NCBI GenBank assembly: GCA_003223645.1
Contig: QHVT01000006.1
Coordinates: 340,967 to 404,966 of the forward strand
Length of the DNA stretch: 64,000 nucleotides
Origin: Acidobacteriota bacterium
GTDB taxonomy: Bacteria > Acidobacteriota > Thermoanaerobaculia > Gp7-AA8
Direction: 5' to 3'
In this document: positions 8,120 through 62,181 of the stretch, piece by piece
Layout of the letters: each line of letters opens with the position of its first letter
How positions within the stretch are numbered: position 1 is the first letter of the stretch
Notes under the pieces: model-generated
What the model saw: only the letters and a program-made list of their open reading frames with translations
Database searches by the model: none
What the model was told of the DNA's origin: nothing
Program-made: the position numbers and the translations under genes

Positions 8120-8335
8120 GCGAAGACGCCGAAGGATCTCGAAATGTGCGGAGATGTGCGTATTCAAACACATCGCAAGAGCAGTGAACGATGAAGGATG
8201 ATCGATGAAAGATGATCGATGAAGGATCCGAAATGTCATTCATCCTTCATCGTTAACGTACTCGCGGAGATCGTCGGATCTTGGCTTTTGGAATTTCGAG
8301 ATCCTTCGCCGTCTTCGCGGCTCAGGATGACGGTG
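8120..8335. repeat. Degenerate MITE-like element related to the GTCATCCTGAG family, with internal GATGAAGGATGATCGATGAAAG sub-repeats
   Basis: Contains CGAAGGATCTCGAAATG and GAGATCCTTCGCCGTCTTCGCGGCTCAGGATGAC, matching the ends of the compact element at 37639-37732. Confidence 0.5.
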
Positions 8336-20323: not shown

Positions 20324-20360
20324 CAGAAGGTCGCGAGACGGCGCGCGCGGCGTTGACGCG

Positions 20361-20885: not shown

Positions 20886-20895
20886 CGACCAATCG

Positions 20896-21840: not shown

Positions 21841-21848
21841 CCCTCCTT

Positions 21849-22793
21849 TTACGGCTCGAACGGGTCGCGCCGCTTGCGAATTTCGAGATATTCCGAGTGG
21901 ATTCCGCCGCCCGGCAAAGTCAGGAAGTGGAAACGAGCGATTCCGTTCATGCGCTGGGAGAAAGTACCGGCGCCCGGATCGGCATATGCAGCGAGCAGGC
22001 AATAGATCTTTGGATCATCCCAGACCTTCGTCGTAGTTGGGCAGTGATCGAACAGATTCCACAGGCCGTTCGTCCTCCATTGGTGAGCAATCTCGTGAGC
22101 TGCCGTTTTCTTGGCCCACAGACTCACGTCGCTCGCATTGTTTCCGCTCAAGGCGTGGTCGATTGTGTCGCAGAATACCCACGACGACGTCCGGGCATCC
22201 ACCTCCGAGATGGTGAGTCCTGCATCGGGTCCAAAGGCGTCGCCCGCGGCTTCATCCGACGCGATGACCAGCAACTGGTGATTCGGCTCGAGCGTACCGG
22301 TCGCGATTGTCGTCCGGCACGCGCTGCGCCTGCGGTACATAGAGCGCGGTGTCTGGAGGATCGGCGACGCGCAGCCAGACGTCCGCTTCCGGACTCGCGG
22401 TATTCGAAGTCACGGCGCCGCGGAATCGGAAGCGCGGCTTCCCTCCGGGCTGGCTCGAAACGATCTGGAACGGCGAGAGATCCGTGTCGCCCGGCTTCGG
22501 GTGAAGAATGAGCTTCTGCGACATCGCCGGCACGAGCACGAACGCGAACTTCCGCGGCTCGGTTCTGAAAATCAGCTCGCCCTTCTCAGCGGAATCCGCA
22601 CCTTCAAGTAGCTCCAGTTCGAGCCCGCGGTGTCCATAAACGCGATGTTTCTCGTTCCCTCGAAGTATCTGCAGCCTTCGGTGCTGATCTGCGGATTCCA
22701 GTCGATGAGGATCGTGTGATCCGTCGCCTGCGCGAAACCTTTGACTGCGAGTAGCAGCGCGAACGCGGCCGCGATGACATTCGACCTTTGCAT
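21849..22793 (-). pseudogene. Secreted zincin-like metallopeptidase (HExxH) disrupted by two frameshifts
   Basis: Signal-peptide ORF 22572-22793 (MQRSNVIAAAFALLLAVKGFAQA) continues in a second frame (22252-22572) and then a third (21849-22340) containing AHEIAHQW zinc-binding motif; the three frames tile without gaps. Confidence 0.45.
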
Positions 22794-23152
22794 TGAAGAC
22801 CTCTCTGCGAGCGAATGTAGGTCGGCCTACTCCCATCCGTCAATATGGAGCAAACATGCGTCACGACGATTGACGGGAGTCTGAAGGGATTGTGCAGCGA
22901 CGACCTTAGGCGCCACCTCACGCGCTTGTGAACAGCGCGTCCACGGGCCGCGATGCCATCGATCTTTGTCATCCCGGGTAATCGCCATCACTGCATACGA
23001 GCGGCACAAGCGAGTGGCGCGGCGGTTGCGGACGACGCGACAACGGGGTTCGCGATGCAAACCGGTGGGCTCGCGAGCTCACGACGTGGGATCGGGTGGG
23101 AGAGACGCGGGTCGCGCGCGCGGACGCGCCGCGCAACCCGCGAAAGGGTTGC

Positions 23153-23485
23153 TTAGAGGTTGCGGTCGATGAAGTTCTGCAGCGCGTTTTTCGGCGCCGC
23201 TCCGACCATGCGGTCGACGAGCTTGCCGTCCTTAAACATCATCAGCGTCGGGATCGAGGTCACGCCGAAACGCTGTGCGATGACGGGGTTGTCGTCGACA
23301 TTCATCTTGCCGATGACGGCCTTGCCGTCGTAGTTCGGCGCGAGCTCTTCGACGACCGGGCCGATCAGCCGGCACGGGCCGCACCACGGCGCCCAGAAGT
23401 CGACGAACACGGGCTTCCCGGCGTTGATGACGCTGTCGAAGTCGCCGTCGGTGAGCTGTTGAATGGATTTGGTTTCAGTCGCCAT
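23153..23485 (-). CDS. trxA: Thioredoxin
   Basis: 110 aa, canonical WCGPC active site ([10 protein letters not shown]). Confidence 0.95.
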
Positions 23486-23655
23486 TTCTGCAAGATCTCC
23501 TAACGATCTCAGTCAAAGCCGAGCCTGTCGCAACATATTCCTAACCGTTTGTGTTTGCGCGTTCGGTGCCGATCCACGTGGGCTTTGCAGCCGATATGCG
23601 GCGGTTTGCCGTCATCGCCCTCGCGCTGTCGCTGCCAGTGCTGCACAGCCATGGC

Positions 23656-23686
23656 GCTGCTGGGTAGTGTCCTAATTTGGACGGCC
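23656..23686. repeat. Left terminal inverted repeat of the 3.3 kb element
   Basis: 18-nt core GGTAGTGTCCTAATTTG identical to right end. Confidence 0.6.
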
Positions 23687-24133
23687 CGGGAAAAAGTACG
23701 CCTCCCGGTATCCCGGCGCAACCTTGTCCATCCGTTCGGCCATCGTTCCGGCGAAGTCAATCAGCTCGCCGTGCAGCGCGGCGTCCAGCGTCATCCGCTG
23801 CTCTCCAGCAACCGTCTCCAGCGCCAGAATGATGAACTCCGGCAGCCGGACGGTGACGGCGCGAAGGGCCAGCAGGGGCGGCAGGACTCGCGCAGCGTCC
23901 GCACCAAGCGCGTCCGCTATCTCCGCAAGCGTCCATCGCTCCATCGCCACGTAAACGGCCTGACGCCACAGGAAGCGCCATCGGCCGCGCACCCTTTCCG
24001 CGTCGCGGTCACCGCCCGCTACCTCCCGCCGCAGCGCGCGGACTGGCGTGTCCGTCAGGCGCGCAACCTCGCCGAGAGTGTACGACTCTGCCGGGTCGAG
24101 AAAGAGCGAACGGATGCGCTGACATCTGTCCAT
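23672..24133 (-). CDS. Helix-turn-helix domain protein (MerR/excisionase-like HTH, tentative)
   Basis: ESYTLGEVARLTDTPVRALRRE HTH-like segment; start at internal M (MDRCQRIRS); C-terminus overlaps left IR. Confidence 0.4.
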   Translation of the reverse strand: MDRCQRIRSLFLDPAESYTLGEVARLTDTPVRALRREVAGGDRDAERVRGRWRFLWRQAVYVAMERWTLAEIADALGADAARVLPPLLALRAVTVRLPEFIILALETVAGEQRMTLDAALHGELIDFAGTMAERMDKVAPGYREAYFFPGRPN

Positions 24134-24195
24134 CGAAGCCTCCCACCTAACTATAGTGGGATGGAGGTTACACCGATCTATGGTTAGGGTAAAGG

Positions 24196-24459
24196 GTGAT
24201 GTCACGTCGGAAGGAACGGAGCCCGGAAGGGCAGCGGTTCGGCGACACGTTGCGCCGACTTCGGAACGAGCGCGACCTGAGTCAGGAACGGCTCGCGGAA
24301 GCGGCGAATCTGACGGCGGATTACGTCGGCTTCGTCGAGCGCGGGGAGAACGTGCCGACGCTGACCGTTCTCCTCAAGCTGGCGAGGGCGCTCAGAGTCG
24401 ATGCGTCGGAGTTACTGAGCGAGTTCACGGTAGCGACGTTGAAGCGCATGAAGTTGTAG
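24196..24459 (+). CDS. XRE-family (Cro/C1-type) HTH transcriptional regulator
   Basis: LRRLRNERDLSQERLAEAANLTADYVGFVERGENVPTLTVLLKLARAL is a classic XRE HTH. Confidence 0.8.
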   Translation: MMSRRKERSPEGQRFGDTLRRLRNERDLSQERLAEAANLTADYVGFVERGENVPTLTVLLKLARALRVDASELLSEFTVATLKRMKL

Positions 24460-24537
24460 GCTACTCCGTCGCTGCCCGCGCAACTGTCGATCCTGGACAA
24501 GTCGAGGGAGGAATTACCCTTGCGGCGGCGTGACAGG

Positions 24538-25536
24538 CTATCGGTATTTCAACTGTGTTTCGTCTGTGTCGTTGTGCTCATTACAGACGTCAAATGTCTT
24601 AAATTGCGGCGACAGGAGATAGCAGAACGTCAGCCAGTGCGGATGGCGGAAAACATCCTTGTACTCTACACGCCCGTGCACCCATACCAACGCGGAACCG
24701 TTGGCAATCTCGTCTATGTAGCTTTGGGTCATGGCGAGCGGGCGGTGCGCTTTGTCCTGAATCGGAAATGTACTGAGGTGATACGGAACCGTAGGCGCGA
24801 TGACGCCGCGACTGTCAAGCACGCCAACAACGATGTCATCGTATTTAAAAGAAGGCTTCTCGGTGGGGCGGGTGACTTCCAGTTTAAAATCAGCATGAAC
24901 GTGCAGTGCTGGAGTCTTGCCTGTATTTCTAATCGATACGTCTGCCTTATACGGCGAACCTACAACCAATTCTCCCTTAATATTATCGACACCAAGCCAC
25001 GCACGTTGATCCAAACGAGAGGCGTTGATACTCGCGTCAAGCGCGGCCCTACCTTGCGCAAGATTGGTTTTCAGCACATTCTGGTTTTCGCCCAGCAGCT
25101 TCGCAAGTTCCTCGCGGTTTTCCTTCAGCGTGTTCTCGATCGCCGCCTTGTTTTGGGCGAGGTTCGTTTTATTGTCGGCAACCATCTGCTTCTGATGGTC
25201 AGAGATGGCGTTAGCGGCGGTAATCAATTTGTCAGTTTGTACGCTCGTGCCGTGCATTTCGGCGAGTTGGGAGCGCATCGTCCACCATTGAAGCGCAGCG
25301 AAAAAAGTGTAGACGGCGGTGACTACCACTACCCCACGCGTCCAGTTAAAGCTACGTCGCTGAATTTCGAGGCCTTGCTGTTGAAGTTTGGCGCTAAGTT
25401 CTTCAAATTTGCTGAGGGCATCGCGTATCTTATCCTCGGGAGTCTTGGGGTTCGTATCGCTGGCTGGAGTTTCGACAGTCGGCGGCATCCTATTAGCGCT
25501 GACTGGAGCCTTCTTGTCGGAGTTCTGACCGTTCAT
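24538..25536 (-). CDS. Hypothetical membrane-anchored protein (AT-rich, likely horizontally acquired)
   Basis: 332 aa, single TM (GVVVVTAVYTFFAALQWW), coiled-coil then beta-rich region; preferred over Arg-rich antisense ORF 24520-25584. Confidence 0.5.
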   Translation of the reverse strand: MNGQNSDKKAPVSANRMPPTVETPASDTNPKTPEDKIRDALSKFEELSAKLQQQGLEIQRRSFNWTRGVVVVTAVYTFFAALQWWTMRSQLAEMHGTSVQTDKLITAANAISDHQKQMVADNKTNLAQNKAAIENTLKENREELAKLLGENQNVLKTNLAQGRAALDASINASRLDQRAWLGVDNIKGELVVGSPYKADVSIRNTGKTPALHVHADFKLEVTRPTEKPSFKYDDIVVGVLDSRGVIAPTVPYHLSTFPIQDKAHRPLAMTQSYIDEIANGSALVWVHGRVEYKDVFRHPHWLTFCYLLSPQFKTFDVCNEHNDTDETQLKYR

Positions 25537-25651
25537 GTCGCGGCTGTCCTACTAGCGTTGAGGGTTGTGGTGCTGTTCGTATGATTCGCTGTTGTTAACT
25601 GTAGCACAAAAACTCTGGACAAACATAGATTGTTGTAATACACTTACTCAT

Positions 25652-26383
25652 ATGGCAAACGTCCTCAACGTCGAGAAGCAAACCGTCATCATCGGCTCAC
25701 TCGCCGAGGGATCAAGCATCCGCTCCATCGAGCGTATGACCGGAGTCCACCGTGACACCATCATGCGTCTCGGTGTGAAGGTCGGAGAGGGATGCGCGAA
25801 GATTCTGGACGCGATCATGCGCGATCTTCCCTGCACGCATTTGCAGATGGATGAGATTTGGGGATACATCGGTAAGAAACAGCGCCACGTTGCGCCGTCT
25901 GATGATCCTTCCATGGGCGATGCGTGGACGTTCTGCGCGATCGATTCCGAAACCAAACTCGTTCCGGCGTTCAAGGTCGGAAAGCGCGATAGCGAGACGG
26001 CAAACGCGTTCGTCGCGGACCTTGCCTCGCGCATGAGCAATCGCGTGCAGCTTTCCTCTGATGGTCTCAAGGCGTACGTTGAAGCCGTGGAGTTGGCGTT
26101 CGGTGCCGACGTCGATTACGCGCAGGTCATTAAGACGTACACGGAAGATCAGTCGAAAACGCCGGAGCGCCGCTACAGCGCCGCGCGCATCCTGACTGTA
26201 GAGAAGCGCGCCGTGCAGGGCGATCCCGACATGAAGGCGGCAAATACCAGTTACGTTGAGCGCCTGAACGCCACGACGCGCCAGCACATGCGCCGACTGA
26301 CCCGGCTCACGCATGCCTTCAGCAAGAAACTGGAGAACTTTGAAGCGGCGGTTGCGCTGCACTTCGCGTATTACAACTCGTGA
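25652..26383 (+). CDS. IS1-family transposase (fused InsA-InsB type)
   Basis: N-terminal HTH (SIRSIERMTGVHRDTIMR) and C-terminal DDE region with YVERLNATTRQHMRRLTRLTHAFSKKLENFEAAVALHFAYYN resembling IS1 InsB IERHNLNLRQHLARL...FSKS motif. Confidence 0.7.
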   Translation: MANVLNVEKQTVIIGSLAEGSSIRSIERMTGVHRDTIMRLGVKVGEGCAKILDAIMRDLPCTHLQMDEIWGYIGKKQRHVAPSDDPSMGDAWTFCAIDSETKLVPAFKVGKRDSETANAFVADLASRMSNRVQLSSDGLKAYVEAVELAFGADVDYAQVIKTYTEDQSKTPERRYSAARILTVEKRAVQGDPDMKAANTSYVERLNATTRQHMRRLTRLTHAFSKKLENFEAAVALHFAYYNS

Positions 26384-26477
26384 AGCGCCACGAAACGATT
26401 CGCTGCACTCCCGCGATGGCTGCCGAGGTTGTATCGTCGCCGTGGACGGTGCGTCAGTTAGTGGAGATCGCGCTCGC

Positions 26478-26774
26478 ATGACCTACCTCGATGAACTGAG
26501 GGACGTGATCCGACGCCTTCACGGCGCGGACGCGGCGCATGTCGAGAGCGTGCCGGTCAAAGAGGTGTTCAAAGGGAAAACGGTTTGGGAGGGAGTCGTG
26601 GAGGTATTCGATCTGCACGGACATCCAACGGCCAGCCGCGTCTACGCATGGGCGCACGATACCGACGATCCCGCAGCGCCACGGCGACACGTCACGGTGT
26701 TGCACAGCCATCCAATCGAATCAGCACGGCAGGCGGTGCGAGCCGCTATCGTGCAGGAGTTCAGAGAACAGTGA
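26478..26774 (+). CDS. Hypothetical protein (first gene of RHH two-gene module)
   Basis: 98 aa from MTYLDELRD; stop overlaps GTG start of next gene (GTGA). Confidence 0.45.
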   Translation: MTYLDELRDVIRRLHGADAAHVESVPVKEVFKGKTVWEGVVEVFDLHGHPTASRVYAWAHDTDDPAAPRRHVTVLHSHPIESARQAVRAAIVQEFREQ

Positions 26775-26953
26775 GTCAACCGAAGCCTAAGAAACCGGGC
26801 CGTCCGAAGTTGGCGAAGGGTCACGCGAAGGCGCACATCGTTCCGGTGCGGTTCAATCCTGACTTGCTCCGACGAGTCGAGAAGGCGGCGAAGGCGAGCG
26901 GTAAGAACGTTTCCGAATGGATCAGGAGCACCCTCGATGCCGCAACGAACTGA
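26771..26953 (+). CDS. Ribbon-helix-helix (CopG-like) DNA-binding protein, antitoxin-like
   Basis: 60 aa; HIVPVRFNPDLLRRVEKAAKASGKNVSEWIRSTLD is a typical RHH fold signature. Confidence 0.55.
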   Translation: MSQPKPKKPGRPKLAKGHAKAHIVPVRFNPDLLRRVEKAAKASGKNVSEWIRSTLDAATN

Positions 26954-26985
26954 GCCGGTCAAATTAGGACACTACCCGCTGCTGC
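26952..26985. repeat. Right terminal inverted repeat of the 3.3 kb element
   Basis: Reverse complement carries core GGGTAGTGTCCTAATTTG. Confidence 0.6.
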
Positions 26986-26997
26986 GAGTGGTTGCTT

Positions 26998-27609
26998 TCA
27001 GGAGGGCGATGGCGTAGCCACCGCCCTTCGGAATTTCCGCACGGCTTCGGTTTGGTCTTCGTAGTCGAGGAAGCCTTCGATGAAGGAAGGCGTGAGCCCG
27101 GGCATCACGACGCTCTTCGAGATTTCGACGTACGCATCACCGCGCAGCTCGTACGCCTTTAGCTTTTCCTTTTTCCAGATCCAAACCTCTCTCACTCCGA
27201 GACCGCGATAGACGTCGAGCTTATCGAGTCCTCCGCGTGTCCAAATCACTTCCACCGCGAGATCAGGATTTTCCTTCTCCGCTCCGACGACGTAACACTC
27301 GTCCGGCTCGATTCCCCGCAACTTGGGAGCGTTGCGCATGGTGAGGGAACCGTAACCATTGAAAAATATCCCGTTCTCCTCCGCATAGGTTTCGAGAAGG
27401 CGACCGATCAACGTCTTGTAAAACTCGTGGCTTCGCGATGGACTCATGATCTCGAGTTGTCCCTCCAGGTAGGTCACCCGTACTCCGGCACGATCGCCGC
27501 GGATTGCGAGGAAGGTTTCGAACTGCCACCAGTCGATGTCCTGCAGAATCACGCGCTGATCGGGGTCTAGCGACCTGTCCGGAGGCGCGAGAACGGGTGC
27601 GGTGGACAT
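26998..27609 (-). CDS. Uma2-family (DUF820) PD-(D/E)xK endonuclease
   Basis: 203 aa from MSTAPVLAP; motifs ILQDIDWWQFE, YLEGQLEIMSP, PDLAVEV typical of Uma2 family. Confidence 0.7.
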   Translation of the reverse strand: MSTAPVLAPPDRSLDPDQRVILQDIDWWQFETFLAIRGDRAGVRVTYLEGQLEIMSPSRSHEFYKTLIGRLLETYAEENGIFFNGYGSLTMRNAPKLRGIEPDECYVVGAEKENPDLAVEVIWTRGGLDKLDVYRGLGVREVWIWKKEKLKAYELRGDAYVEISKSVVMPGLTPSFIEGFLDYEDQTEAVRKFRRAVATPSPS

Positions 27610-29295: not shown

Positions 29296-29377
29296 TCGCG
29301 GTTGCGCGGTTGCTCGGTCGCGCAGTTGCTCGGCAACAGCTCAAAGCCGCAAAACCGCGTAACCGCGTAACCGCGGC
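29296..29377. repeat. Tandem-unit palindrome (GCGGTTGC-type)
   Basis: TCGCGGTTGCGCGGTTGCTCGGTCGCGCAGTTGCTCGG ... CCGCAAAACCGCGTAACCGCGTAACCGCGG. Confidence 0.7.
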
Positions 29378-31247: not shown

Positions 31248-31951
31248 TTCCGCTGCGCGACGACAATCCCCGCCGCACGTTTCCGATCGTCAACTACTTG
31301 CTCATCGCCGCGAACATTCTCGGCTTCCTGTGGGAGCTGCGCCTCGGTCCGTATCTCGACAACGAGATCATGCGCGTCGCATTCATCCCGAAGCGCTTCT
31401 GGGTTCCCGGTTACTGGACCGCCGATGTTTACTCGATCGTGATCTCGATGTTCCTGCACGGCGGCTTCCTGCACATCGCATCGAACATGCTCTACCTCTG
31501 GATCTTCGGCGACAACGTCGAAGACCGCCTCGGCCACTTCCGCTATCTGCTCTTCTATTTCCTCTGCGGCTTCGGCGCGACGTTCGCGCATGCGGTCTTC
31601 AGTCCCGCATCGCAACTCCCCGCGATCGGCGCGTCCGGCGCGATCGCCGGCGTCCTCGGCGCGTATCTGCTGCTCTGGCCGCATGCGCGCGTGCTCACGC
31701 TGATCCCGATCATCTTCTTCATCACGGTTCGCGAGCTGCCGGCCGTGTTCATCCTCGGCCTCTGGTTCGTGCTGCAGTTTTTCAGCGGAATCGGATCGCT
31801 CGGCGTGCCCGACGCGCAGAACGCCGGCGGCGTCGCCTACTTCGCGCACATCGGCGGCTTCGTGTCAGGAATCCTGCTCGTGTTTTTGTTCGGCGGATTT
31901 AGGCGGCCGCGCCGTCGCGAGCCGCCTCTCCCATGGTGGGCGCAGAGTTAG
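31244..31951 (+). CDS. Rhomboid-family intramembrane serine protease
   Basis: Catalytic motifs GASGAIAGV (Ser) and AHIGGFVSG (His); 6-7 TM; ATGA overlap with upstream gene. Confidence 0.8.
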   Translation: MIPLRDDNPRRTFPIVNYLLIAANILGFLWELRLGPYLDNEIMRVAFIPKRFWVPGYWTADVYSIVISMFLHGGFLHIASNMLYLWIFGDNVEDRLGHFRYLLFYFLCGFGATFAHAVFSPASQLPAIGASGAIAGVLGAYLLLWPHARVLTLIPIIFFITVRELPAVFILGLWFVLQFFSGIGSLGVPDAQNAGGVAYFAHIGGFVSGILLVFLFGGFRRPRRREPPLPWWAQS

Positions 31952-31953
31952 GG

Positions 31954-32012
31954 TTTCGCGGTTACGCGGTCTCGCGGTGGGTTCTGCCGCGCAACTGCGC
32001 GACCGCACAACC
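31954..32012. repeat. Short tandem-unit palindrome (GCGGTTAC/GCGGTCTC units)
   Basis: GTTTCGCGGTTACGCGGTCTCGCGGTGGG ... CCGCGCAACTGCGCGACCGCACAACCCC between convergent genes. Confidence 0.55.
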
Positions 32013-36080: not shown

Positions 36081-36177
36081 CTGCAGAATGCAGAATGCAG
36101 AATGCAGAATTGAGAATTCAGAATTTCGCCTACCCCGATTTCTTCATTCTCGATTCTGCATTCGGCATTCTGCATTC
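36081..36177. repeat. Tandem-heptamer hairpin repeat (GCAGAAT units then reverse complements)
   Basis: CTGCAGAATGCAGAATGCAGAATGCAGAATTGAGAATTCAGAAT ... ATTCTCGATTCTGCATTCGGCATTCTGCATTC. Confidence 0.85.
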
Positions 36178-38462: not shown

Positions 38463-38604
38463 CGGCTGTCCCGCGCTGAATGAAACCGACGCGCGGCGAC
38501 TTGTGGAGCGGCGCCCGCCCTCGGGCGCCGACTCTCGCGAGAATCCGGCGGCCGAGGGCGGCCGCCGCTCCACAGGAACGTTGCGAGTGGCATCGTTCGC
38601 GGCC

Positions 38605-42875: not shown

Positions 42876-42897
42876 GCGGCGCGGATCATACCCTCAG

Positions 42898-43005
42898 TTT
42901 ATCCCGCGCGAAGACGCGGGATCTTCGGTGGCACCGCGCGGCTCGCTTTGTTCGGATTGATCGTACCGGTATGACGAGAGATCCCGCATCTGCGCGCGGG
43001 ATAAA
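42898..43005. repeat. Paired inverted copies of the TTTATCCCGCGCG hairpin element flanking a 50-nt spacer
   Basis: TTTATCCCGCGCGAAGACGCGGGATCTT ... GAGATCCCGCATCTGCGCGCGGGATAAACT. Confidence 0.75.
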
Positions 43006-43007
43006 CT

Positions 43008-44224: not shown

Positions 44225-45733
44225 TTACTGGACTACTTTGAACGTCTCCTTGAGGGAGTACGAGCTCTTCTTCACCGTGTCGATGACCTTGACGGTGAAC
44301 GTGTAGTCGCCGGGCTTGAACGTCTGCAGCGGAATCGCGCTGCCGATCGCGAAGTGATTCGGCACGCCCTTCACCGGTGTCGCCGCGACTTCCGACGGCG
44401 GCGCCGTCATCTTCGTTTTCTTACCCGTCGCGTCGGTGCCTTCGACGTCGAGCTTCACCTGCACCTTCGGTTCCGTCTCGCCTTCGGCGATGCCGGGATT
44501 GCGCAGCTCGACGAAGTACCAGAGGTCATCCGTGGGACGGAACGTGCGGTCGCCCTTCGGCACGACTTTCAGTCCGCCGAACGCATACGGATCGGTCGGC
44601 GCCTGCGCGGCGCTGAGCGGATAAATATTGTTGGCGAGGATGAGCTGCGACGACGACGTCGCGTCCTTCGCGAGTCCGGTCAGCTCCATGTCGGCCGCGA
44701 CGAGCGAGACCTTGCCGGCGTCGGAGACGCCGAAGTAGCCGCGATATTTTCCGGGAGGAAGCGTGAGCGACTTGTCGAGGAAGAAGTCGTCCTTCGTCGC
44801 GACCGGCTTCGCCGGCTCTTCGAAGGCGGCGACGTTCTTGCCGCTCGCGTCTTCGACGACGCCGAAGAACGTCGCGCCTGTTGCAGGCGCGGACCCTTGC
44901 GGGATGTAGAGGAGCACCGGCGCAAAGTCGATGCCTTCGCCGGTCAGATATTCGCCGGTCGTCGCGTAGATCGGCTTTGCACTCTTGCCGCTCTTTTTAA
45001 ATTCGGCGACGGCGGTTTTCAACGCGTCCGTCGTCAGCTCCGTCGGCGCGGGAGGATTCGGAACGACCTGCGCGATCGGCACAGGTGCCGGCTGCGCTGT
45101 CGGGGCCGCGAACGTCGGGACTTCGGTGAGGTTCGGCTGCTTGATCGCCGCCGCGATCGCGCGCTGCTGCGAGCCGCCGATGTCGAGCGAGCGCTCGATG
45201 CGAAACTCGTGACGTCCGAGGCGGTCGATGAAGCGGAGCTGCGTGCGCGGCGCGGTGAAGATCGACTTGGTCGCGTCGCCTTCATAGGTCCAGATGTACA
45301 TCTCCGCGCCCTGCTTCTCGTCCTCGACATCGCTCGCGGTCGTGCCGGTGTGCGGCGCGACGAGATTGGCGCCGCTGTGCTCGAGCTTCGACGGCTGGCC
45401 GTAGAGGATCAGCGCCTTGCCGCGGTCGGTCAGCGACCCTTTGGTTTTTCCTTCCGTGAAATTCGCGTCCGCAGCCGCGACGCGCGCGTCGAAGTCTTCA
45501 TGAAATTCGTTGCGCGGCGTGGACGGCGTCGGATCGCGGCGCGCCCAGAACAGCGCGATGAACTTCTCCGCGGCGTCGTCCGTCGAGACCGCCTTCCACT
45601 GCGCGATCTCTTCCTTCGTCATCAGCACCGCCGCCGGTCCCTTGCCGAATGCGGCGTGCTCGGGTGTGAGCGCGGAGGCGCTGACTGCTACGGCCGCGGC
45701 CGCCGCCGCGAGAACGATGTTGCGGATGTTCAT
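44225..45733 (-). CDS. GWxTD-domain secreted protein
   Basis: Signal peptide; FIALFWARRDP ... GSLTDRGKALILYGQP matches GWxTD-type motif (W replaced by S). Confidence 0.55.
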   Translation of the reverse strand: MNIRNIVLAAAAAAVAVSASALTPEHAAFGKGPAAVLMTKEEIAQWKAVSTDDAAEKFIALFWARRDPTPSTPRNEFHEDFDARVAAADANFTEGKTKGSLTDRGKALILYGQPSKLEHSGANLVAPHTGTTASDVEDEKQGAEMYIWTYEGDATKSIFTAPRTQLRFIDRLGRHEFRIERSLDIGGSQQRAIAAAIKQPNLTEVPTFAAPTAQPAPVPIAQVVPNPPAPTELTTDALKTAVAEFKKSGKSAKPIYATTGEYLTGEGIDFAPVLLYIPQGSAPATGATFFGVVEDASGKNVAAFEEPAKPVATKDDFFLDKSLTLPPGKYRGYFGVSDAGKVSLVAADMELTGLAKDATSSSQLILANNIYPLSAAQAPTDPYAFGGLKVVPKGDRTFRPTDDLWYFVELRNPGIAEGETEPKVQVKLDVEGTDATGKKTKMTAPPSEVAATPVKGVPNHFAIGSAIPLQTFKPGDYTFTVKVIDTVKKSSYSLKETFKVVQ

Positions 45734-45770
45734 TCGGTCTCCAGTACGTGCTAGTCGCGAGCGGAAACGG

Positions 45771-45965
45771 TCACTGCTGCTCGAAATCTTCCATCTCGTC
45801 GTAGAGGCGGTCCATCTCGGCGTCGATCTCTTCCTGCTTGAGAATGCCTTTGCGGACGAGAAGCGCGGCGAGGCTGTGCAGCAGGATGCCGTTCTCGATG
45901 ATCATCTGCTCGATCTGTTCGTCTTCATCTTCAAAGTCGCCGTCGGTGCGTTCGATATCGTCCAT
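45771..45965 (-). CDS. Small acidic hypothetical protein (64 aa)
   Basis: AAGGAGAG RBS 6 nt upstream of ATG; highly acidic. Confidence 0.45.
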   Translation of the reverse strand: MDDIERTDGDFEDEDEQIEQMIIENGILLHSLAALLVRKGILKQEEIDAEMDRLYDEMEDFEQQ

Positions 45966-46000
45966 GGCCTTCTCTCCTTGGGCGAGCGGTGTATCACAGG

Positions 46001-46100
46001 AAAGCAGAAAGCAGAAAGCAGAAGGCAGAAAGCAAAAACGGTGGCTTTGACAGGCATTGGCGGTGTTCTTTCTGCTTTCTGCTTTTTGCTTTCTGCTTTC
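46001..46100. repeat. Tandem-heptamer hairpin repeat (GCAGAAA/GCAGAAG units)
   Basis: AAAGCAGAAAGCAGAAAGCAGAAGGCAGAAAGC ... GTTCTTTCTGCTTTCTGCTTTTTGCTTTCTGCTTTC in divergent intergenic region. Confidence 0.85.
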
Positions 46101-46116
46101 AATACAATCCGCCGCG

Positions 46117-47112
46117 ATGAAACGAACTCTTCTTGTTTGTGTCTTGTTTGCAGTTTTCTCCTGTCAGCAGCGGGAGACCGCGGCTCCTTCTGCCGCTGCG
46201 CCGGCTCCCGCTGCGAAGCCGTTCAAAGCGGGCCTCCTCACGCCGGGATCGATCAACGACGGCGGATGGAACGCGATCGCATACGAAGGTTTGCAGCGCA
46301 TCAAAAACGAGCTCGGCGCCGAGGTCTCGAATCAGGAGACGAAGACGCCGCCGGAGATGCTCGACGGCTTCCGCTCCTACGGTGCGAAGGGTTTCGACAT
46401 CGCGTTCGGCCACGGCTTCGAGTACCAGGAGCCGGCGAAGCAGGCCGCCGCCGAGTATCCGAACACGATCTTCATCACCAGCTCCGGCAACACGGTGACG
46501 AACAACGTCTCACCGATGCGCTTTCAAATCGAAGAATCGACCTATCTCCTCGGCGTGATCGCCGCGCGCGAGTCGAAGACTGGCAAGGCCGGACTCGTCG
46601 GCGGCATCAATCTCCCGTCGATCGACTCCAGCTTCGTCGCCTTCAAAGCGGGCGCGCAGTCGGTGAATCCGAAATTCGAGGTGAAGACGATCTACACCGG
46701 CAACTTCGACGACGTCGGCGCGGCGAAAGTCGCGACGCTGTCGCTCATCAACGCCGGATGCGATTTCATTTTCCATCAGGCCAACGAAGCGGGGCGCGGC
46801 GTGTTCCAGGCTTGCACCGAGCGCAAAGTGCGCTGCTTCGGATCCAACAAAAACCAGACCGACATGGCGCCCGACTACGTCGTCGCCTCGGCAGTCGTCG
46901 ACGTGCCCGCGGCGTTCGTGGAGATGGCGAAGATCGTGAAGGAAAAGCGATTCAAGCCCGGCGAGCAGCACTTCGGCTTCAACAACAACATCGTGCGGCT
47001 GGAGTGGAACGACAAACTGAAAGCGTCGATCTCGCCGCAGACGATCGCCGAAGTAGATCGGCTGACGAACGAGATCAAAGCCGGGACGCTGAAACCGCCG
47101 GCTGGTTTTTGA
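46117..47112 (+). CDS. BMP-family (PnrA/Med-like) ABC transporter substrate-binding lipoprotein
   Basis: Lipoprotein signal LFAVFSC; BMP motifs GFDIAFGHGF, GGINLPS. Confidence 0.8.
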   Translation: MKRTLLVCVLFAVFSCQQRETAAPSAAAPAPAAKPFKAGLLTPGSINDGGWNAIAYEGLQRIKNELGAEVSNQETKTPPEMLDGFRSYGAKGFDIAFGHGFEYQEPAKQAAAEYPNTIFITSSGNTVTNNVSPMRFQIEESTYLLGVIAARESKTGKAGLVGGINLPSIDSSFVAFKAGAQSVNPKFEVKTIYTGNFDDVGAAKVATLSLINAGCDFIFHQANEAGRGVFQACTERKVRCFGSNKNQTDMAPDYVVASAVVDVPAAFVEMAKIVKEKRFKPGEQHFGFNNNIVRLEWNDKLKASISPQTIAEVDRLTNEIKAGTLKPPAGF

Positions 47113-47184
47113 TGGCAGATGGCTGACGGCAGATGGCGGAAACGCGCCGATCGCCTGCCATCCGCCATCTGCCATCTGCCATCC
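47113..47184. repeat. Tandem-heptamer hairpin repeat (GGCAGAT units / GCCATCT)
   Basis: TGGCAGATGGCTGACGGCAGATGGCGG ... CCTGCCATCCGCCATCTGCCATCTGCCATCC fills the whole gap between SBP and ATPase genes. Confidence 0.85.
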
Positions 47185-47186
47185 AC

Positions 47187-48440
47187 ATGATCCACCTCTC
47201 CCACATCACCAAAACATTGGGCGCCACGCGCGCCGTCGATGATGTTTCGCTCGACGTGCGCAACGGAGAGATCGTCGCGCTGGCCGGCGAGAACGGCGCG
47301 GGCAAGACGACGCTGATGCGCATCGCCGCGGGCGAGATCGACGCCGACGGCGGCAGCGTGAATCGCGAAGGACGCGCGGAGCTCGTGCATCAGCACTTCC
47401 TCCTCGTCGACGCGCTGTCGATCGCGGAAAACCTCGCGCTCACCCATCGCGGCTTTCGTTTCACCACGCGGCGGATCATCGAGCGTGAAGCGTCGGCGAT
47501 CATCGAGAGCACAGGCATCGAGTTGCGCGATGGATCGCGACTCGTCGCGGAGCTTTCGGTCGGCGAGCGATCGAAGCTCGAGCTGATCAAAGCGATTGCA
47601 CGCAAGCCTTCGACGCTGATCCTCGATGAGCCGACGTCTGTCCTCACGCCAAACGAGACCACGGAATTGTTTCGCGTCATGCGACGCATCGCAGCCGAAG
47701 GCGCGGCGGTCGTGTTCATCAGCCACAAACTTCCCGAAGTTCTCGAAGTGGCGGACCGGATCGTCGTGATGCGCGGCGGGCGGGTGATTGCGGAGAGCGC
47801 GGCACGCGACACGAACGTGCGGGACCTCGCCAACGCGATGGTCGGCCGCATAACCGAGCAACCGAGCGACCGCGCAACCGCGGGAAGGATCACAGCGATT
47901 GTCGGAGTCGCAGGAAACGGACAAGCCGAGCTCGCGGCGAAGTTGCGCGATGAGGAACGCGACGCCGGGCACATTCCGGAAGATCGCACGCGCGACGGGA
48001 TCGTCGCGGAGATGACGATCGCGGAGAACCTGGCGTTGAAAGCGAAGCGCTGGAACGCGCGCGAAGCGGCGAGGCACGCGGAGCGGATGATCGCGCTATA
48101 TTCGATTCGCGCGAGCGGTCCGCTGCAGCGCGCCGGCGATCTGTCGGGCGGCAATCAACAGAAGGTGATCCTCGCGCGCGAGCTCGATCGCAAGCCGAAG
48201 CGCATCGTCGCCGCGGAGCCGACGCGCGGACTCGACATCGAGGCGACGCGCTTCGTGCACGAGCAGCTTCGCTCCGCGGCAGTCGAAGGCGCGTCCATTC
48301 TCCTCATCACGTCCGACCTCGACGAGGCGTTCGCACTCGCCGACACGATCCAGGTGATCTATCGCGGACGTCTCTCCGATCCGCTCACGCCGTCGGAAGC
48401 CGCGACGCGCGTGGCCTCACTCATGGCGGGAGTCGCGTGA
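47187..48440 (+). CDS. ABC transporter ATP-binding protein (two ABC domains, second degenerate)
   Basis: Walker A GENGAGKTT, signature LSVGERSKL, Walker B ILDEPT; second half LSGGNQQKV. Confidence 0.8.
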   Translation: MIHLSHITKTLGATRAVDDVSLDVRNGEIVALAGENGAGKTTLMRIAAGEIDADGGSVNREGRAELVHQHFLLVDALSIAENLALTHRGFRFTTRRIIEREASAIIESTGIELRDGSRLVAELSVGERSKLELIKAIARKPSTLILDEPTSVLTPNETTELFRVMRRIAAEGAAVVFISHKLPEVLEVADRIVVMRGGRVIAESAARDTNVRDLANAMVGRITEQPSDRATAGRITAIVGVAGNGQAELAAKLRDEERDAGHIPEDRTRDGIVAEMTIAENLALKAKRWNAREAARHAERMIALYSIRASGPLQRAGDLSGGNQQKVILARELDRKPKRIVAAEPTRGLDIEATRFVHEQLRSAAVEGASILLITSDLDEAFALADTIQVIYRGRLSDPLTPSEAATRVASLMAGVA

Positions 48441-49399
48441 GGCGCTTCGCGGTCGCCGTCATCGCTGCGGCCGCGGCGATCGTGCTCCTCGCCTTCTCCG
48501 GCGCGCTGTTCGGCCACTCGCCGTGGTCGCTGCTCTCGATCGTCGCGAGCGGCTCGGTCGGATCGCGCTTCGCGCTCGCCAGTACGCTGCTGAAGTCCGT
48601 TCCGCTTCTCTTGACGGGACTCAGCGTCGCGATCGCCTTTCGCGCCGGCGTGTGGAACATCGGCGGCGAAGGACAGTTCATCGTCGGCGGACTCGCGGCG
48701 CTCGTCGCCTCACGCTTCGGCATCGTCGCATCGCTCGCGGCGGCGATGCTCGCCGGCGCGGCGTGGGCATCGATCGCATCCGCGATGCGTCTCTGGCGCA
48801 ACGCGCCGGAAGTGCTGACAACGATCCTGCTGAACTTCACCGCGATTCATTTGCTCGGATGGAGCGTGAACGGACCGCTGCGCGAGCACGCGGGGCAATA
48901 TCCGCAAACCGATCTCGCGCACGTCGCGCTGCCGGAAATCGGCGGCGTGCACTTCGGCATCGTCATCGCGCTCGCCGCAAGTGTGTTCGCATGGTGGCTG
49001 CTGTATCGCACCGCGGCAGGACTGCGATTGCGCGCGACGGGACTCAATCCCAACGCCGCGCGATGGGCGGGCATCCGGGTCGGTGCGCAACTCGCACGCG
49101 CGATGGCCATCTCCGGCGCCGCCGCCGGTCTCGCCGGCGGCATCGAGCTCCTCGGCGTCACGCACCGTCTCTTCGAGCGCTTCGCCGCCGGCTACGGCTA
49201 CTCCGGAATCGCCGTCGCGCTGCTCGCGCAGTTGCATCCGCTCGCGACGATCGCGTCGTCGCTCTTCTTCGGCGCGCTCGTCACCGGCGCGGGCGAGCTG
49301 CAACGCGCCGCCGGCATCTCCGCCGGCGTCGCGACATTCGGACAGGCCGTCGTCATTCTCACGCTGATTGTTTTCGAACATGTACGAGCTGATCGCTAA
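48437..49399 (+). CDS. ABC transporter permease (BMP family)
   Basis: GTG start overlapping ATPase stop; about 8 TM. Confidence 0.75.
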   Translation: MRRFAVAVIAAAAAIVLLAFSGALFGHSPWSLLSIVASGSVGSRFALASTLLKSVPLLLTGLSVAIAFRAGVWNIGGEGQFIVGGLAALVASRFGIVASLAAAMLAGAAWASIASAMRLWRNAPEVLTTILLNFTAIHLLGWSVNGPLREHAGQYPQTDLAHVALPEIGGVHFGIVIALAASVFAWWLLYRTAAGLRLRATGLNPNAARWAGIRVGAQLARAMAISGAAAGLAGGIELLGVTHRLFERFAAGYGYSGIAVALLAQLHPLATIASSLFFGALVTGAGELQRAAGISAGVATFGQAVVILTLIVFEHVRADR

Positions 49400-50225
49400 C
49401 TCGATTCCGATCGCGATCGTCGCGTCGATCCCGCTGCTGCTCGCGGTCGAAGGCGAGCTCCTCGTCCAACGCGGCGGCATCATCAACCTCGGCATCGAAG
49501 GAATGATGCTCACCGCCGCGATGACCGCGGCATTCGCGGCGCAGACGACCGGCAGCGTGACGATCGGATTCCTCGGCGGCATCGCCGGCGCGATGGTCAT
49601 CACCGCGATCTTCGGCGTCTTCGCGATCGCGCTGCGCGCCGATCAAATCGTGACCGGCACCGCCATCAATCTCCTCGCCCTCGGCGGCACGAGCTTCGTC
49701 TACCGCGAAGTCGCCGCATTCCAGCGACCGATCCCGCAACTCCACACCGACATCGTCTCCGCGCTGTCATGGATCGTCGCTCCGCTCATCCTCGGCGCGA
49801 TTCTCTGGAACACATCCTTCGGCCTGCGCCTCCGCGCATGCGGCGAAAATCCCGAAGCGCTTGCCGCGACCGGCCGCTCCGTCCGTATGCATCGATGGGC
49901 CGCGCTGATGATCGAAGCACTCCTCGTCGGCATCGGCGGCGCATACCTGTCGCTCGCGCTCTCCAGCGGCTTCGCCGAAAACATGACCGCCGGCCGCGGT
50001 TTCATCGCACTCTCGATCGTGATCTTTGGACGCTGGAAGATAAAAGGCGCCCTCCTCGGCACCGCCATCTTCGGCCTCGCCGCCGCCTTGCAGTACGCGC
50101 TGCAGGCCGCGAACCGCGGCATCCCGTTCCACATCCTGCTCGCCGTCCCGTACGTCGTCACGCTGCTGATTCTGTGCGGGGTGGCGGGGCGGGTGCGTTC
50201 GCCGGAGAGTCTCGGACGTCCCTAG
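49380..50225 (+). CDS. ABC transporter permease (BMP family, second)
   Basis: Start at MYELIANS (49380) overlapping upstream permease; multi-TM. Confidence 0.7.
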   Translation: MYELIANSIPIAIVASIPLLLAVEGELLVQRGGIINLGIEGMMLTAAMTAAFAAQTTGSVTIGFLGGIAGAMVITAIFGVFAIALRADQIVTGTAINLLALGGTSFVYREVAAFQRPIPQLHTDIVSALSWIVAPLILGAILWNTSFGLRLRACGENPEALAATGRSVRMHRWAALMIEALLVGIGGAYLSLALSSGFAENMTAGRGFIALSIVIFGRWKIKGALLGTAIFGLAAALQYALQAANRGIPFHILLAVPYVVTLLILCGVAGRVRSPESLGRP

Positions 50226-50341
50226 CCGCCACGGGCGGCTGCGTGGATTGCTCCGCCTTGCGGCCTGCTTGCCGCCACGTCACGAATGCGGCTTCGAGCG
50301 GCGCAACGCGCCTGAGATCGTCGTTTCTGGCGCGCAAATTC

Positions 50342-51550: not shown

Positions 51551-51608
51551 AAGTAAGAACCTCCCTCTTGCCATATATAGTAAGCAAAACGGAAGCCGGA
51601 GAAAACGC

Positions 51609-53063: not shown

Positions 53064-53065
53064 GG

Positions 53066-53187
53066 TTGCTCGGTTACTCGGTCGCGCGGTTGCGCTGCTT
53101 TCGGTTGCGCGGTTGCTCGGTCACGCGGTTGCGCGGCGGGTGGGTGGCAATTTGCCGCGCAACCGAGCGACCGAGTGACCGCGCAAC
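53066..53187. repeat. Large tandem-unit palindrome (CGGTTGC/CGGTTAC units)
   Basis: GGTTGCTCGGTTACTCGGTCGCGCGGTTGCGCTGC ... GCCGCGCAACCGAGCGACCGAGTGACCGCGCAACC fills entire 122-nt gap between two co-directional genes. Confidence 0.8.
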
Positions 53188-54000
53188 CTAATTCACGATC
53201 CACGACGCCAGCCTCTTTTCGAGAAACGCCTTCATGCCTTCCTGTCCTTCTTCCGACACGCGCCGCTCGGCGATCGCCTCGATCGTGTACGGAATTGCAT
53301 CGACGAGCTCGTGCGATACGACGTGTGCGATCAGCTTCTTGCACTCGCGCACGGCTTCCGGTCCCGCGGTCTTGAGCTGCGTGACCGTTTCGTAGACCGC
53401 AGCGTCGAGCTCTTCGATCGTGTCGACGGTGCGATGCACGAGTCCGATGCGCAGCGCGCGCTCCGCTTCGAAGCGCTCGCCGGTGAGGAAGAGCGCGCGC
53501 GCGTGCGTCTCGCCGATCTTCGCGATCACGTACGGTGAGATCAGCGCGGGGAGGATGCCGAGCTTCACTTCGGAGAGTCCGAACTTCGCGTCGCTCATCG
53601 CGATCGCGATGTCGCAGACCGCGGCGAGTCCGACGCCTCCGCCGATCGCGGCGCCCTGAATACGTCCGACGATCGGCAGCGGACAGGAATTCATCAGCGC
53701 GAACAGCTTCGCGACGTGCGAGGAGTCGCGCACGTTTTCGTCGCGCGTGTACGCGACCATGCGCGACATCCAATTCAGGTCCGCGCCCGCGCAGAACGTT
53801 TTGCCCGCGCCCTTGATCACGATCGCGCGAGCCGCATCGGTGTCGACATGTTCGAACAAGTCGACCGCCTCCGCGATCAGTTCATCGTTGAACGCGTTGT
53901 GCACCTCGGGGCGGTTGAGAGTGACGGTGAGAACTCCGTCGGCAAGCTCGACGAGGAGTGTGTTGTACGCCATACGACGCGGATTGTAGTGGAGCTGCAT
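53188..54000 (-). CDS. Enoyl-CoA hydratase/isomerase family (methylglutaconyl-CoA hydratase-like)
   Basis: Crotonase fold motifs KTFCAGADL, GAAIGGGVGLAAVCD; start may be the second Met (53973). Confidence 0.75.
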   Translation of the reverse strand: MQLHYNPRRMAYNTLLVELADGVLTVTLNRPEVHNAFNDELIAEAVDLFEHVDTDAARAIVIKGAGKTFCAGADLNWMSRMVAYTRDENVRDSSHVAKLFALMNSCPLPIVGRIQGAAIGGGVGLAAVCDIAIAMSDAKFGLSEVKLGILPALISPYVIAKIGETHARALFLTGERFEAERALRIGLVHRTVDTIEELDAAVYETVTQLKTAGPEAVRECKKLIAHVVSHELVDAIPYTIEAIAERRVSEEGQEGMKAFLEKRLASWIVN

Positions 54001-56261: not shown

Positions 56262-56265
56262 GTCG

Positions 56266-58816: not shown

Positions 58817-58895
58817 GGATGGCGGATGGCGGATGGCGGATGGCAAGTCTTACGACTCGCTTTTCGCCATCTGCCATCTGCCATCTGCCATCTGC
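58817..58895. repeat. Tandem-heptamer hairpin repeat (GGATGGC x4 ... GCCATCT x4)
   Basis: GGATGGCGGATGGCGGATGGCGGATGGCAAGTCTTACGACTCGCTTTTCGCCATCTGCCATCTGCCATCTGCCATCTGC; right arm encodes last 14 codons (QMADGRWQMAKSES) and stop of upstream gene. Confidence 0.85.
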
Positions 58896-61020: not shown

Positions 61021-61037
61021 TTGCTGTGCACTCTCTT

Positions 61038-61143
61038 CCCGTGCCCGCGCCCGTGCCCGCTCCCGCGCCCGGGGCGGGTGGCGAGCGAAGCGACTTCGTG
61101 CCCCCACCCCGAGCGCGGAAGCGGGCACGGGCTCGGGCGCGGG
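61038..61143. repeat. GC-rich tandem-unit palindrome (CCCGTGCCCGCGC-type units and reverse complements)
   Basis: CCCGTGCCCGCGCCCGTGCCCGCTCCCGCGCCCGGGGCGGG ... CCCCGAGCGCGGAAGCGGGCACGGGCTCGGGCGCGGGAG between hbd and crt genes. Confidence 0.75.
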
Positions 61144-61147
61144 AGAA

Positions 61148-62032: not shown

Positions 62033-62080
62033 GTCAGAACTCCTGTTCGGAAAGTCGGGCGCATTCTAAGCGAAGGATGA

Positions 62081-62162
62081 AAGCAGAAGGCAGAAGGCAG
62101 AAGTGAGAAGTTAGCCGTTCTCATTTCTTACTTCTGCCTTCTGCCCTCTGCCTTCTGCCTTC
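62081..62162. repeat. Tandem-heptamer hairpin repeat (GCAGAAG units)
   Basis: AAGCAGAAGGCAGAAGGCAGAAGTGAGAAGTTAGCCGTTCTCATTTCTTACTTCTGCCTTCTGCCCTCTGCCTTCTGCCTTC in divergent intergenic region. Confidence 0.85.
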
Positions 62163-62181
62163 ATTCGCTATCCTTGCACCC

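Follow-up and report, generated by a model that had tools for sequence, protein, structure and literature searches.

Hairpins with tandem-repeat arms at gene boundaries in Thermoanaerobaculia: candidate dispersed palindromes gained, lost and replaced between related genomes

Why should a bacterial genome carry, between its genes, long hairpins whose two arms are each a tandem array of a seven-base unit? The question is raised by a 64,000-nt stretch of DNA from an Acidobacteriota bacterium of the Thermoanaerobaculia (contig QHVT01000006.1, positions 340,967 to 404,966; here the window), in which a preliminary description made from the letters alone had listed five such elements, E1 to E5. The answer favored here, with a probability of about one half, is that they belong to a population of dispensable, dispersed intergenic palindromes that extends across Thermoanaerobaculia and resembles repetitive extragenic palindromic (REP) elements and their hairpin-forming doublets (REPINs), with tandem arrays for arms. 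Two of the observations behind this answer are that hairpins are gained, lost and replaced at orthologous gene boundaries, and that the family of the repeated unit is a property of the genome, not of the site.

The five elements were found where the preliminary description had placed them. Tandem Repeats Finder, applied to the arrays, detects a period-7 array on both sides of each one, with 3.6-6.1 copies and 100% matches in both arrays of E4. An inverted-repeat finder, applied to arm pairing, joins the two sides into arms of 27-45 nt with 84-94% complementarity and 5-35 nt between them. The described architecture of direct units, a spacer and inverted units holds for all five, as do their positions in tandem gaps, divergent gaps and a gap of an ATP-binding cassette (ABC) operon. 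Folded as RNA, the elements reach -48 to -63 kcal/mol (z -6.9 to -10.6), a stability that none of 200 shuffled sequences equals. A purpose-written detector of long inverted repeats with both arms periodic returns seven in the window and none in 20 dinucleotide-preserving shuffled windows. With contiguous units of 6-8 nt, the elements are also distinct from CRISPR arrays, whose repeats of 23-50 nt alternate with unique spacers of similar length. Rfam covariance models run on the window recover two tRNAs only, and no element matches a family at gathering score. The list itself was incomplete: at least five more elements of the same build, with 6-, 7- or 8-base units, lie in the window, which holds about ten, or roughly one per 6-7 kb, from at least four unrelated unit families.

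Orthologous junctions in relatives show how these hairpins behave. One genome per species was scanned, giving 80 orthologous loci, nearly all labelled Thermoanaerobaculia (loci of relatives carry L-numbers below). The comparison of orthologous gaps proposed in the preliminary description reveals filled and empty sites even at about 90% DNA identity. In L082, at that identity, E1 is absent and the stop codon of the CPBP protease gene overlaps the thiolase start. In L089, about 90% identical, E5 is absent and a 48-nt gap stands in its place; the 6-mer hairpin of the window at 61037 is absent there as well, leaving a gap of 0 nt. The orthologous gaps of E2 in L001, L009 and L021 measure 21-38 nt and contain no element, and upstream of the LeuA-like gene relatives mostly have a gap of 1-40 nt and no hairpin. 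The junction between enoyl-CoA hydratase and biotin carboxylase genes, occupied by an 8-mer hairpin in the window, is empty in about 28 metagenome-assembled genomes (MAGs), with gaps of -9 to +18 nt. Where it is filled, it holds GGTTGCGC, GCAGAAT, GAAAATT, GTCCTGA, GGGAGTC, GGGGTGT or ATTTTGG hairpins, or non-periodic palindromes. The LeuA-like/tRNA-Leu and MFS/dehydrogenase gaps are likewise empty or variously filled, and junctions with overlapping stop and start codons gain at least 100 nt of new DNA. A structural slot that is always filled is ruled out, as most orthologous gaps are short and empty.

Elements that persist also change. L081, L083, L084 and L089 retain E4, and its unit variants are not the same in the two arms. 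In relatives the right arm is an alternation of CCATCTG and CCATCCG; in the window it is CCATCCG throughout. L089 carries a second, diverged copy of the hairpin beside the first. E5 has about seven and 5-6 units and a longer loop in L081, compared with about five and four units in the window. At the E3 junction, between a Bmp binding-protein gene and an ABC ATPase gene, seven of nine relatives have other hairpins and two (L001, L017) have none. Such gain, loss and replacement at gene boundaries, especially after stop codons and within about 10% divergence, is DNA-level behavior of the kind known for REP sequences, bacterial interspersed mosaic elements (BIMEs) and REPINs.

Further comparisons dispose of the concern that the hairpins are chimeric fold-backs created during assembly or amplification. 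Short-read assemblers and some amplification methods can indeed produce palindromic chimeras, but four of the elements lie within 10-15 kb stretches of the window that recur with 100% identity in three independent metagenome assemblies of other samples, and on this ground the elements are not assembly artefacts. Elements of the same kind occur in 80 MAGs from many studies, complete chromosomes among them; orthologous copies diverge in step with their flanks; and the elements lie within long contigs, between intact genes. An artefact was tested and rejected, and its remaining likelihood is negligible.

Similar hairpins are by no means confined to the five original sites. The census sample comprises the window and 84 loci of relatives, 1.22 Mb in total with at most 20 kb per relative, and contains 315 long inverted-repeat loci, 94 of them with periodic arms. 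The period is 7 in 76 of these 94 elements, 8 in 16 and 9 in 2. Median arm length is 4.4 and 4.3 units, and median loop length 18-21 nt. The lengths of the two arms are correlated (Spearman 0.37, p 2.6e-4), and in 66 of the 94 pairs they agree within one unit, against 53 +/- 4 expected from random pairing. About three-quarters of all heptamer arrays are paired in this way, with 76 hairpins (about 150 paired arrays) set against 27 true solo arrays.

The hairpins have a polarity. In 86 of the 94 elements the 5' arm contains more G than C, in four less and in four the same amount, and the base composition of the 5' arm is 37% G, 12% C, 25% A and 26% T. Because the elements are palindromic, the rule is valid on both strands. 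It holds in tandem (49 G-rich to 2 C-rich 5' arms), divergent (19:1) and convergent (11:0) gaps, and in independent metagenome contigs the hairpin families other than those searched for give 26:5. In the unbiased set of collected sequence, GCAGA[AT]N arrays are G-first in 25 cases and C-first in none. Long intergenic palindromes without periodic arms also favor a G-rich 5' arm (64:22 in tandem, 12:1 in divergent and 21:10 in convergent gaps), while those inside genes do not (25:31), and the rule may be broader than the periodic elements.

Placement relative to genes, taken from a gene caller written for this work, puts 52 of the elements between co-oriented genes, 23 in divergent and 11 in convergent gaps, and only 3 of the 94 inside genes. 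In the same three contexts there are 332, 104 and 78 gaps of 60 nt or more. Element edges keep close to stop codons: the stop of the adjacent gene falls within 3 nt of the edge at 63 of 214 gene ends and 4-20 nt before it at 77, so that at 140 of 214 the stop is within 20 nt before, or at most 3 nt inside, the edge. Start codons lie farther away.

This clustering at stops would fit hairpins selected as RNA elements, whether terminators without a U-tract, 3'-end stabilizers comparable to REP in malEFG, RNase III sites or stems that hide a start codon for translational coupling. The great stability of the stems is in keeping with such roles, as are the arms that adjoin the next start codon (E3 and the 53064 element) and the presence of some hairpin, if of varying type, at the ABC binding-protein/ATPase junction in seven of nine relatives. 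The mismatches in the stems point the other way. In co-oriented contexts 23 are G.U in the sense RNA and 37 in the antisense, where the sense RNA has A.C, and in E4, whose right arm is CCATCCG throughout, the sense RNA has an A.C mismatch in every unit. Divergent gaps are not depleted (23 of 104 occupied, compared with 11 of 78 convergent gaps), whereas ordinary, non-periodic palindromes in the same DNA show a terminator-like pattern of 13 divergent to 36 convergent. No T-tail follows the long stems of the window elements, and most orthologous junctions have no hairpin. A terminator scan over the nine hairpins in 45000-64000 lists no stem that spans any of them and no T-tail after them; its only sites inside elements are two chance 5-pair stems, in E2 (46059-46076) and in the 8-mer element (53086-98). 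Canonical terminators and sigma-70 promoters were sought at the elements, and none was found. The missing G.U excess, the A.C mismatches of E4, the lack of a terminator tail, the frequency in divergent gaps and the empty orthologous sites give no support to a function in RNA as the main driving force, and selection at the RNA level is a doubtful explanation of the whole.

RNA effects at operon junctions, where some stems cover start codons, are nevertheless likely from the sequences. Transcripts through an element would have to form stems of 28-40 bp, which could block 3' exonucleases, serve as RNase III sites, or couple or attenuate expression within operons. In E. coli a REP sequence stands between malE and malF, at the junction of binding protein and membrane component of an ABC operon. 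The analogy of E3 to that position is plausible, as other genomes have other hairpins at this junction; the mismatch comparison yields no RNA-level signature.

The second observation concerns the units. Pairs of elements share a unit family in 24 of 103 cases within one sequence (23%) and in 203 of 4268 between sequences (4.8%), and none of 5000 permutations reaches this value. The unit at a variously filled junction is the one used elsewhere in the same MAG, as in L026, where five ATTTTGG hairpins lie within 11 kb. Metagenomes were scanned for hairpins of three GCAGAAN units and three complementary ones, 5-35 nt apart; at least 119 contigs matched, and among the matches listed these hairpins occupy more than 100 different gene neighborhoods. 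Their ends are locked in phase: among the same matches, 199 of 266 arms start at GAAN or AAN (chi-square p 7e-66) and 230 of 266 end after GCAGAA(N) (p 4e-47), a rule that E1, E2, E3 and E5 also obey. A GCAGA core is common to the heptamers of all five window elements. The preliminary description had argued from the variation of units for selection on structure rather than sequence. The GCAGA core, the limited set of families shared within a genome, the G-rich 5' arm and the locked phase are rules at the level of sequence and do not support this.

Fixed phase and genome-specific units could also suggest iterons, arrays bound cooperatively as duplex DNA by a small DNA-binding protein. Known examples are the 7-bp heptads of the omega repressor of plasmid pSM19035 and the 8-bp met boxes of MetJ, periods that match those found here at about four units per arm, and divergent promoter gaps are among the sites occupied. 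Several unrelated families per genome (at least four in the window), neighbors that are unrelated housekeeping genes, and orthologous sites that mostly have no element speak against it, and no candidate protein was identified. Binding arrays of this kind are a very improbable explanation.

An unlikely but more substantial alternative is that each hairpin is a purely local mutational by-product, in which slippage expands a chance proto-repeat and template switching then duplicates it in inverted form, with no copying between loci. In many bacteria heptamers outnumber all other long simple repeats (Mrazek 2007, cited in PMC4679880 and PMC4692102). Relatives differ in copy number, and variants spread within a single arm. 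Local birth does not account for unit families shared by unrelated loci of one genome, one of them in more than 100 different neighborhoods, for the 86:4 polarity that includes divergent gaps, or for the large gain of DNA at junctions where stop and start overlapped, and phase-locked ends are not expected from independent births off random seeds. Sharing within genomes, the many unrelated sites, the locked phase and the single polarity argue that arrays are copied, not independently born. Slippage acts afterwards, as the changes in copy number and the arm-wise spread of variants indicate.

The favored reading, a population of REP/REPIN-like palindromes, joins these two processes. An element would consist of a G-rich array on the 5' side, its complement on the 3' side, about four units per arm and a loop unrelated between copies. 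Families would spread by copying from existing copies, the work either of some enzyme or of template switching or gene conversion from hairpin to hairpin, and replication slippage, partly coupled between the arms, would later reshape the arrays in place.

Several points weigh against this reading, and the first two also favor local birth. L055 and L060 read GGAGTGAAGTGAA at their 'empty' LeuA-like site, where L065 and L066 have an array of GAGTGAA units, a family found only in these two loci that looks locally seeded. In L056 and L064, AAGGCAG and AAGGATG units are mixed in one array. The genome-specific character of the units is drawn from small samples, with at most 20 kb per relative, and gene contexts come from a crude gene caller that made at least one error (the CPBP gene). 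No mobilizing gene was found: the transposases of the window are IS1-like only, and no transposase recurs near the GCAGAAN hairpins, whose 270 neighbors among the matches listed fall into 220 clusters, the largest having five members (ABC ATPase). REP-associated tyrosine transposases (RAYTs, of the Y1/HUH type) are absent from the window and from these 270 neighbors, whole genomes being outside the search. Loops of different copies have no common 7-mers beyond noise, and no position-specific bias marks a conserved motif outside the arrays in 499 arms. Among 11 close filled/empty pairs, one possible target-site duplication (TAG, at E5) was seen, the other junctions being too diverged.

Further candidates were set aside. 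A terminal tag or CGAA/GCGAA motif beyond the arrays, suggestive by eye, is not enriched (17 vs 14 of 499 arms). As a test for directional growth of arrays, residual similarity immediately beyond the outer and inner boundaries was compared; it is 0.25 and 0.31 (p 0.11), and first and last units are equally good, with no gradient. The stretch 12000-27600 of the window, with a lower G+C content (0.55-0.62), weak coding scores and several open reading frames (ORFs) without a Pfam match, is probably an island of acquired DNA. Considered as the origin of a mobilizing enzyme, it yields no more than an IS1-like transposase, an AbiU2-like HEPN protein and a Uma2-family nuclease.

A comparison with known repeats shows both close precedents and clear differences. 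The closest is the GGGAATC repeat of Xanthomonas, a tandem heptamer mostly of about four units, about 90% intergenic and much nearer the upstream than the downstream ORF, with 70-75 convergent pairs per genome. Its lengths vary between related species while the single or paired type is usually kept, it is scarce in divergent gaps (7-8%), and it was interpreted as G-quadruplex-forming (Rehm et al. 2015, PMC4692102). The architecture, the G-rich-arm-first polarity, the intergenic location and the nearness to the upstream ORF are common to both. Xanthomonas, however, has one G-tract unit, whereas the present elements comprise many families, most without G-tracts (GCAGAAT, AATGTTG, ATTTTGG), as well as 8-mers; they are not under-represented in divergent gaps, and they belong to another phylum. 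The G-tract pattern GGGANTN calls for a GGG run, which is missing from GCAGAAT/A/G and GCAGATG, the units of the window, and present only in the GGGAGTC and GGGGTGT units of some relatives. As most units have no G-tract, the G-quadruplex is not the common denominator, and we argue that the hairpin pair is the theme shared with Xanthomonas.

REP sequences, BIMEs and REPINs, with their RAYTs, are abundant intergenic palindromes, a REPIN being two inverted copies with a short spacer that form a long hairpin (PMC3116915, PMC3733652). The elements described here are like them in being high-copy intergenic palindromes of genome-specific sequence type, patchy at orthologous sites. They differ in that each REP arm is one imperfect palindrome of 20-40 nt and not a tandem array of 7-8-nt units, and in that the REPIN spacer is conserved, while the spacers of these inverted doublets share nothing between copies. 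The GTAG or CGTC end tag of REPs (Di Nocera 2013) is absent from the 499 arms. The defining features of REPs and REPINs are thus partly present.

Other classes are more distant. The short tandemly repeated repetitive (STRR) sequences of cyanobacteria and the TAACTGA repeat of Beggiatoaceae and cyanobacteria are direct heptamers upstream of start codons, and in the Guaymas genome one of 170 heptamer sets is inverted (PMC4679880). They resemble the present elements in having heptamers in 2-6 copies, very largely intergenic, with a lineage-specific unit that is sometimes read into ORF ends; their arrays are direct and almost never inverted, whereas about three-quarters of the heptamer arrays here are hairpin-paired. 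MITEs, miniature transposable elements with inverted repeats, are likewise small, non-coding, dispersed between genes, bounded by terminal inverted repeats and polymorphic between relatives. Here, however, the interior is not conserved, the 'terminal repeats' make up the entire element and have a period of their own, and no consistent target-site duplication was found. An intrinsic terminator has a short GC-rich stem and a T-run at the 3' end of a transcription unit; here the stems measure 27-45 nt at about 49% G+C, no T-run follows the long stems of the window elements, and 23 elements of the census lie in divergent gaps. No published description of such repeats in Acidobacteriota was found in the literature.

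A more radical proposal is an undescribed way of making or moving DNA in which a genome-encoded factor would set the unit, the phase and the G-rich-5' polarity and would not carry the loop. It is a long shot. In one version, a sequence-specific enzyme would copy arrays only, between gene boundaries prone to hairpins. In the other, G-rich units would be added by templating to both 3' ends of a break, which would then be joined, and this would yield exactly the head-to-head polarity observed. If true, either version would amount to a non-autonomous element of a new class, one that might account for the Xanthomonas pairs too.

The clade offers what Xanthomonas, limited to one unit, does not, a natural experiment in which unit families are many, related genomes number in the hundreds, and the same junctions are empty or differently filled. 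Three rules, the G-rich arm almost always at the 5' side, the phase-locked ends and the genome-specific units at shared hot spots, argue that something copies arrays. The elements also mark sites of rearrangement and duplication and will mislead gene callers and assemblers working on Acidobacteriota MAGs.

The effect of the hairpins on proteins is direct. The preliminary description held that two C-terminal tails are encoded by hairpins, and orthologues without the hairpin do end differently in both cases. The CPBP protease of the window ends in WKMNAECRMQNRE, while its orthologue in L082, where E1 is missing, ends in WRKVRGARLE. Orthologues of the LeuA-like protein have a common sequence through RRWQ[DE] and then short, unrelated tails, many with a 7-residue period (QMADGRWQMA, SAEGRGQRAEE, TQHSALSTQH, AVGSRQ), which is the period expected of a heptamer array read in three frames. 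Tail QMADGRWQMA occurs only in close relatives that share the hairpin. The LeuA-like protein of the window matches one of an Acidobacteria MAG at 100% identity, and its near homologues are labelled Thermoanaerobaculia. Since orthologues without the element carry other C-termini, the tails are written by the hairpins. The preliminary description had named two refuting outcomes, no similar elements elsewhere and the same tails in orthologues; both were checked, and each check favors the finding. In the window and relatives together, the upstream stop codon lies inside the element at 38 of 214 adjacent gene ends, and tails of 10-15 residues are added to about one in six adjacent proteins. They are best read as a side effect of elements inserting into a gene's final codons.

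Two further observations concern reading into arrays and neighbors. In L176 a histidine kinase (the gene left of position 2388) has TADSGQR four times between its domains, a heptamer array read in three frames, so arrays can persist within a coding sequence (CDS) as linkers. The LeuA-like gene directly precedes tRNA-Leu(CAA) throughout the class (about 11160-11350 in L001-L080, 58725-58850 in the window), and in several MAGs its ORF extends into the gene for the tRNA, with ARVAER or SPSGEMADAADSKSAGV among the resulting tails.

The features of the window are collected in Table 1.

Table 1. Hairpin elements, solo array and low-G+C genes of the window, with the limits of the period-7 arrays given by Tandem Repeats Finder
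Feature	Position	Strand	Build	Context	Period-7 arrays
E1	36081..36177	.	(GCAGAAT)n, loop, (ATTCTGC)n hairpin	gap between CPBP/Rce1-like protease stop and thiolase start, both genes on - strand; contains CPBP stop (position 36144)	36082-36124, 36140-36177
E2	46000..46100	.	(GCAGAAA/G)n hairpin	fills divergent gap between small - strand ORF (start 45965) and Bmp binding-protein gene	46000-46038, 46068-46100
E3	47111..47184	.	(GATGGCA)n hairpin	between Bmp stop (47110-47112) and ABC ATPase start (47187)	47111-47137, 47157-47184
E4	58817..58895	.	(GGATGGC)4, loop, (GCCATCT)4	between HMGL/LeuA-like gene (- strand) and tRNA-Leu(CAA), 58725-58810; LeuA-like gene crosses one arm, stop codon in loop	58817-58844, 58866-58895
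E5	62077..62164	.	(GCAGAAG)n hairpin	divergent gap between 3-hydroxyacyl-CoA dehydrogenase and MFS genes	62079-62103, 62131-62162
Extra element	8185..8256	.	7/14-mer, (TGAWSGA)6 then short reverse-complement arm (ATTCATCCTTCATCGTT); GGATGAA/CGATGAA family	within larger inverted repeat 8115-8323
Extra element	29297..29375	.	8-mer hairpin, CGCGGTTG type	between two + strand genes
Extra element	31951..32012	.	8-mer hairpin, GGTTWCGC type	between convergent genes
Extra element	53064..53191	.	8-mer hairpin (GGTTGCGC)	from enoyl-CoA hydratase stop to biotin carboxylase start codon, both genes on - strand
Extra element	61037..61144	.	6-mer (CCCGYG) hairpin	gap between dehydrogenase stop and enoyl-CoA hydratase start
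Solo array	47852..47880	+	C-rich 8-mer, AACCGAGC type, GGTTGCGC family	in frame within ABC ATPase CDS
AbiU2-like HEPN protein	12171-12677			low-G+C stretch
IS1-like transposase	25652-26383			low-G+C stretch
Uma2-family nuclease	26998-27552			low-G+C stretch

The three 8-mer hairpins are grouped as GGTTGCGC type, and the solo array of the same family encodes NRATERPRNRGK, placed between the ABC-domain matches of the ATPase. The 6-mer hairpin has its C-rich arm on the 5' side, the reverse of the heptamer and octamer elements, and because of this opposite polarity it may be a different kind of element. The larger inverted repeat around the element at 8185 consists of a 31-nt sequence (GAGGCGCGAAGACGCCGAAGGATCTCGAAAT), and a similar palindrome containing GGCGAAGGATCTC occupies the LeuA-like/tRNA gap of L053.

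Palindromes of other kinds lie nearby. A separate REP-like family (TGTGGCGACCGCTGCCCTCAGCGG / TGTGGAGCGGCGCCCGCCCTCGGGCGCCG) has copies in the window at 2898-2987, 8379-8475, 17223-17286 and 38502-38574. In L081 and L082 a copy at 8975-9050 has taken the place of the loop and left arm that the 6-mer hairpin has in the window. In L082 the equivalents of window positions of about 38.5 kb and 61.1 kb are joined exactly at this palindrome, a junction that reflects either an inversion or rearrangement between two palindrome copies or a chimeric assembly. Two sites of the window (42896-43007 and 60143-60237) and the region upstream of the LeuA-like gene in L002 carry a 28-nt sequence in inverted pairs; it resembles a type I CRISPR repeat (GTTTATCCCGCGCGAAGACGCGGGATCT), and no array accompanies it. 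The pair at 60143-60237 is absent from L089, about 90% identical, where the gap is 0 nt and the two genes overlap.

Three features of single loci complete the observations. In L081 (17050-17480) a tandem duplication of about 270 nt comprises the 3' end of the hydratase gene, the 8-mer hairpin and the first biotin carboxylase codons, so that the hairpin is present twice; it is either real and repeat-bounded or an assembly error. The near-identical strain L086 (99.8%) has an in-frame 24-nt deletion in the enoyl-CoA hydratase gene (window about 60244-61020), with 250 residues compared with 258. Finally, in a divergent gap of L062 (7771-7978) AACCTCC/AACCTCT heptamers run on for about 200 nt as a solo array with no inverted partner; with about 29 units it is far above the usual four.

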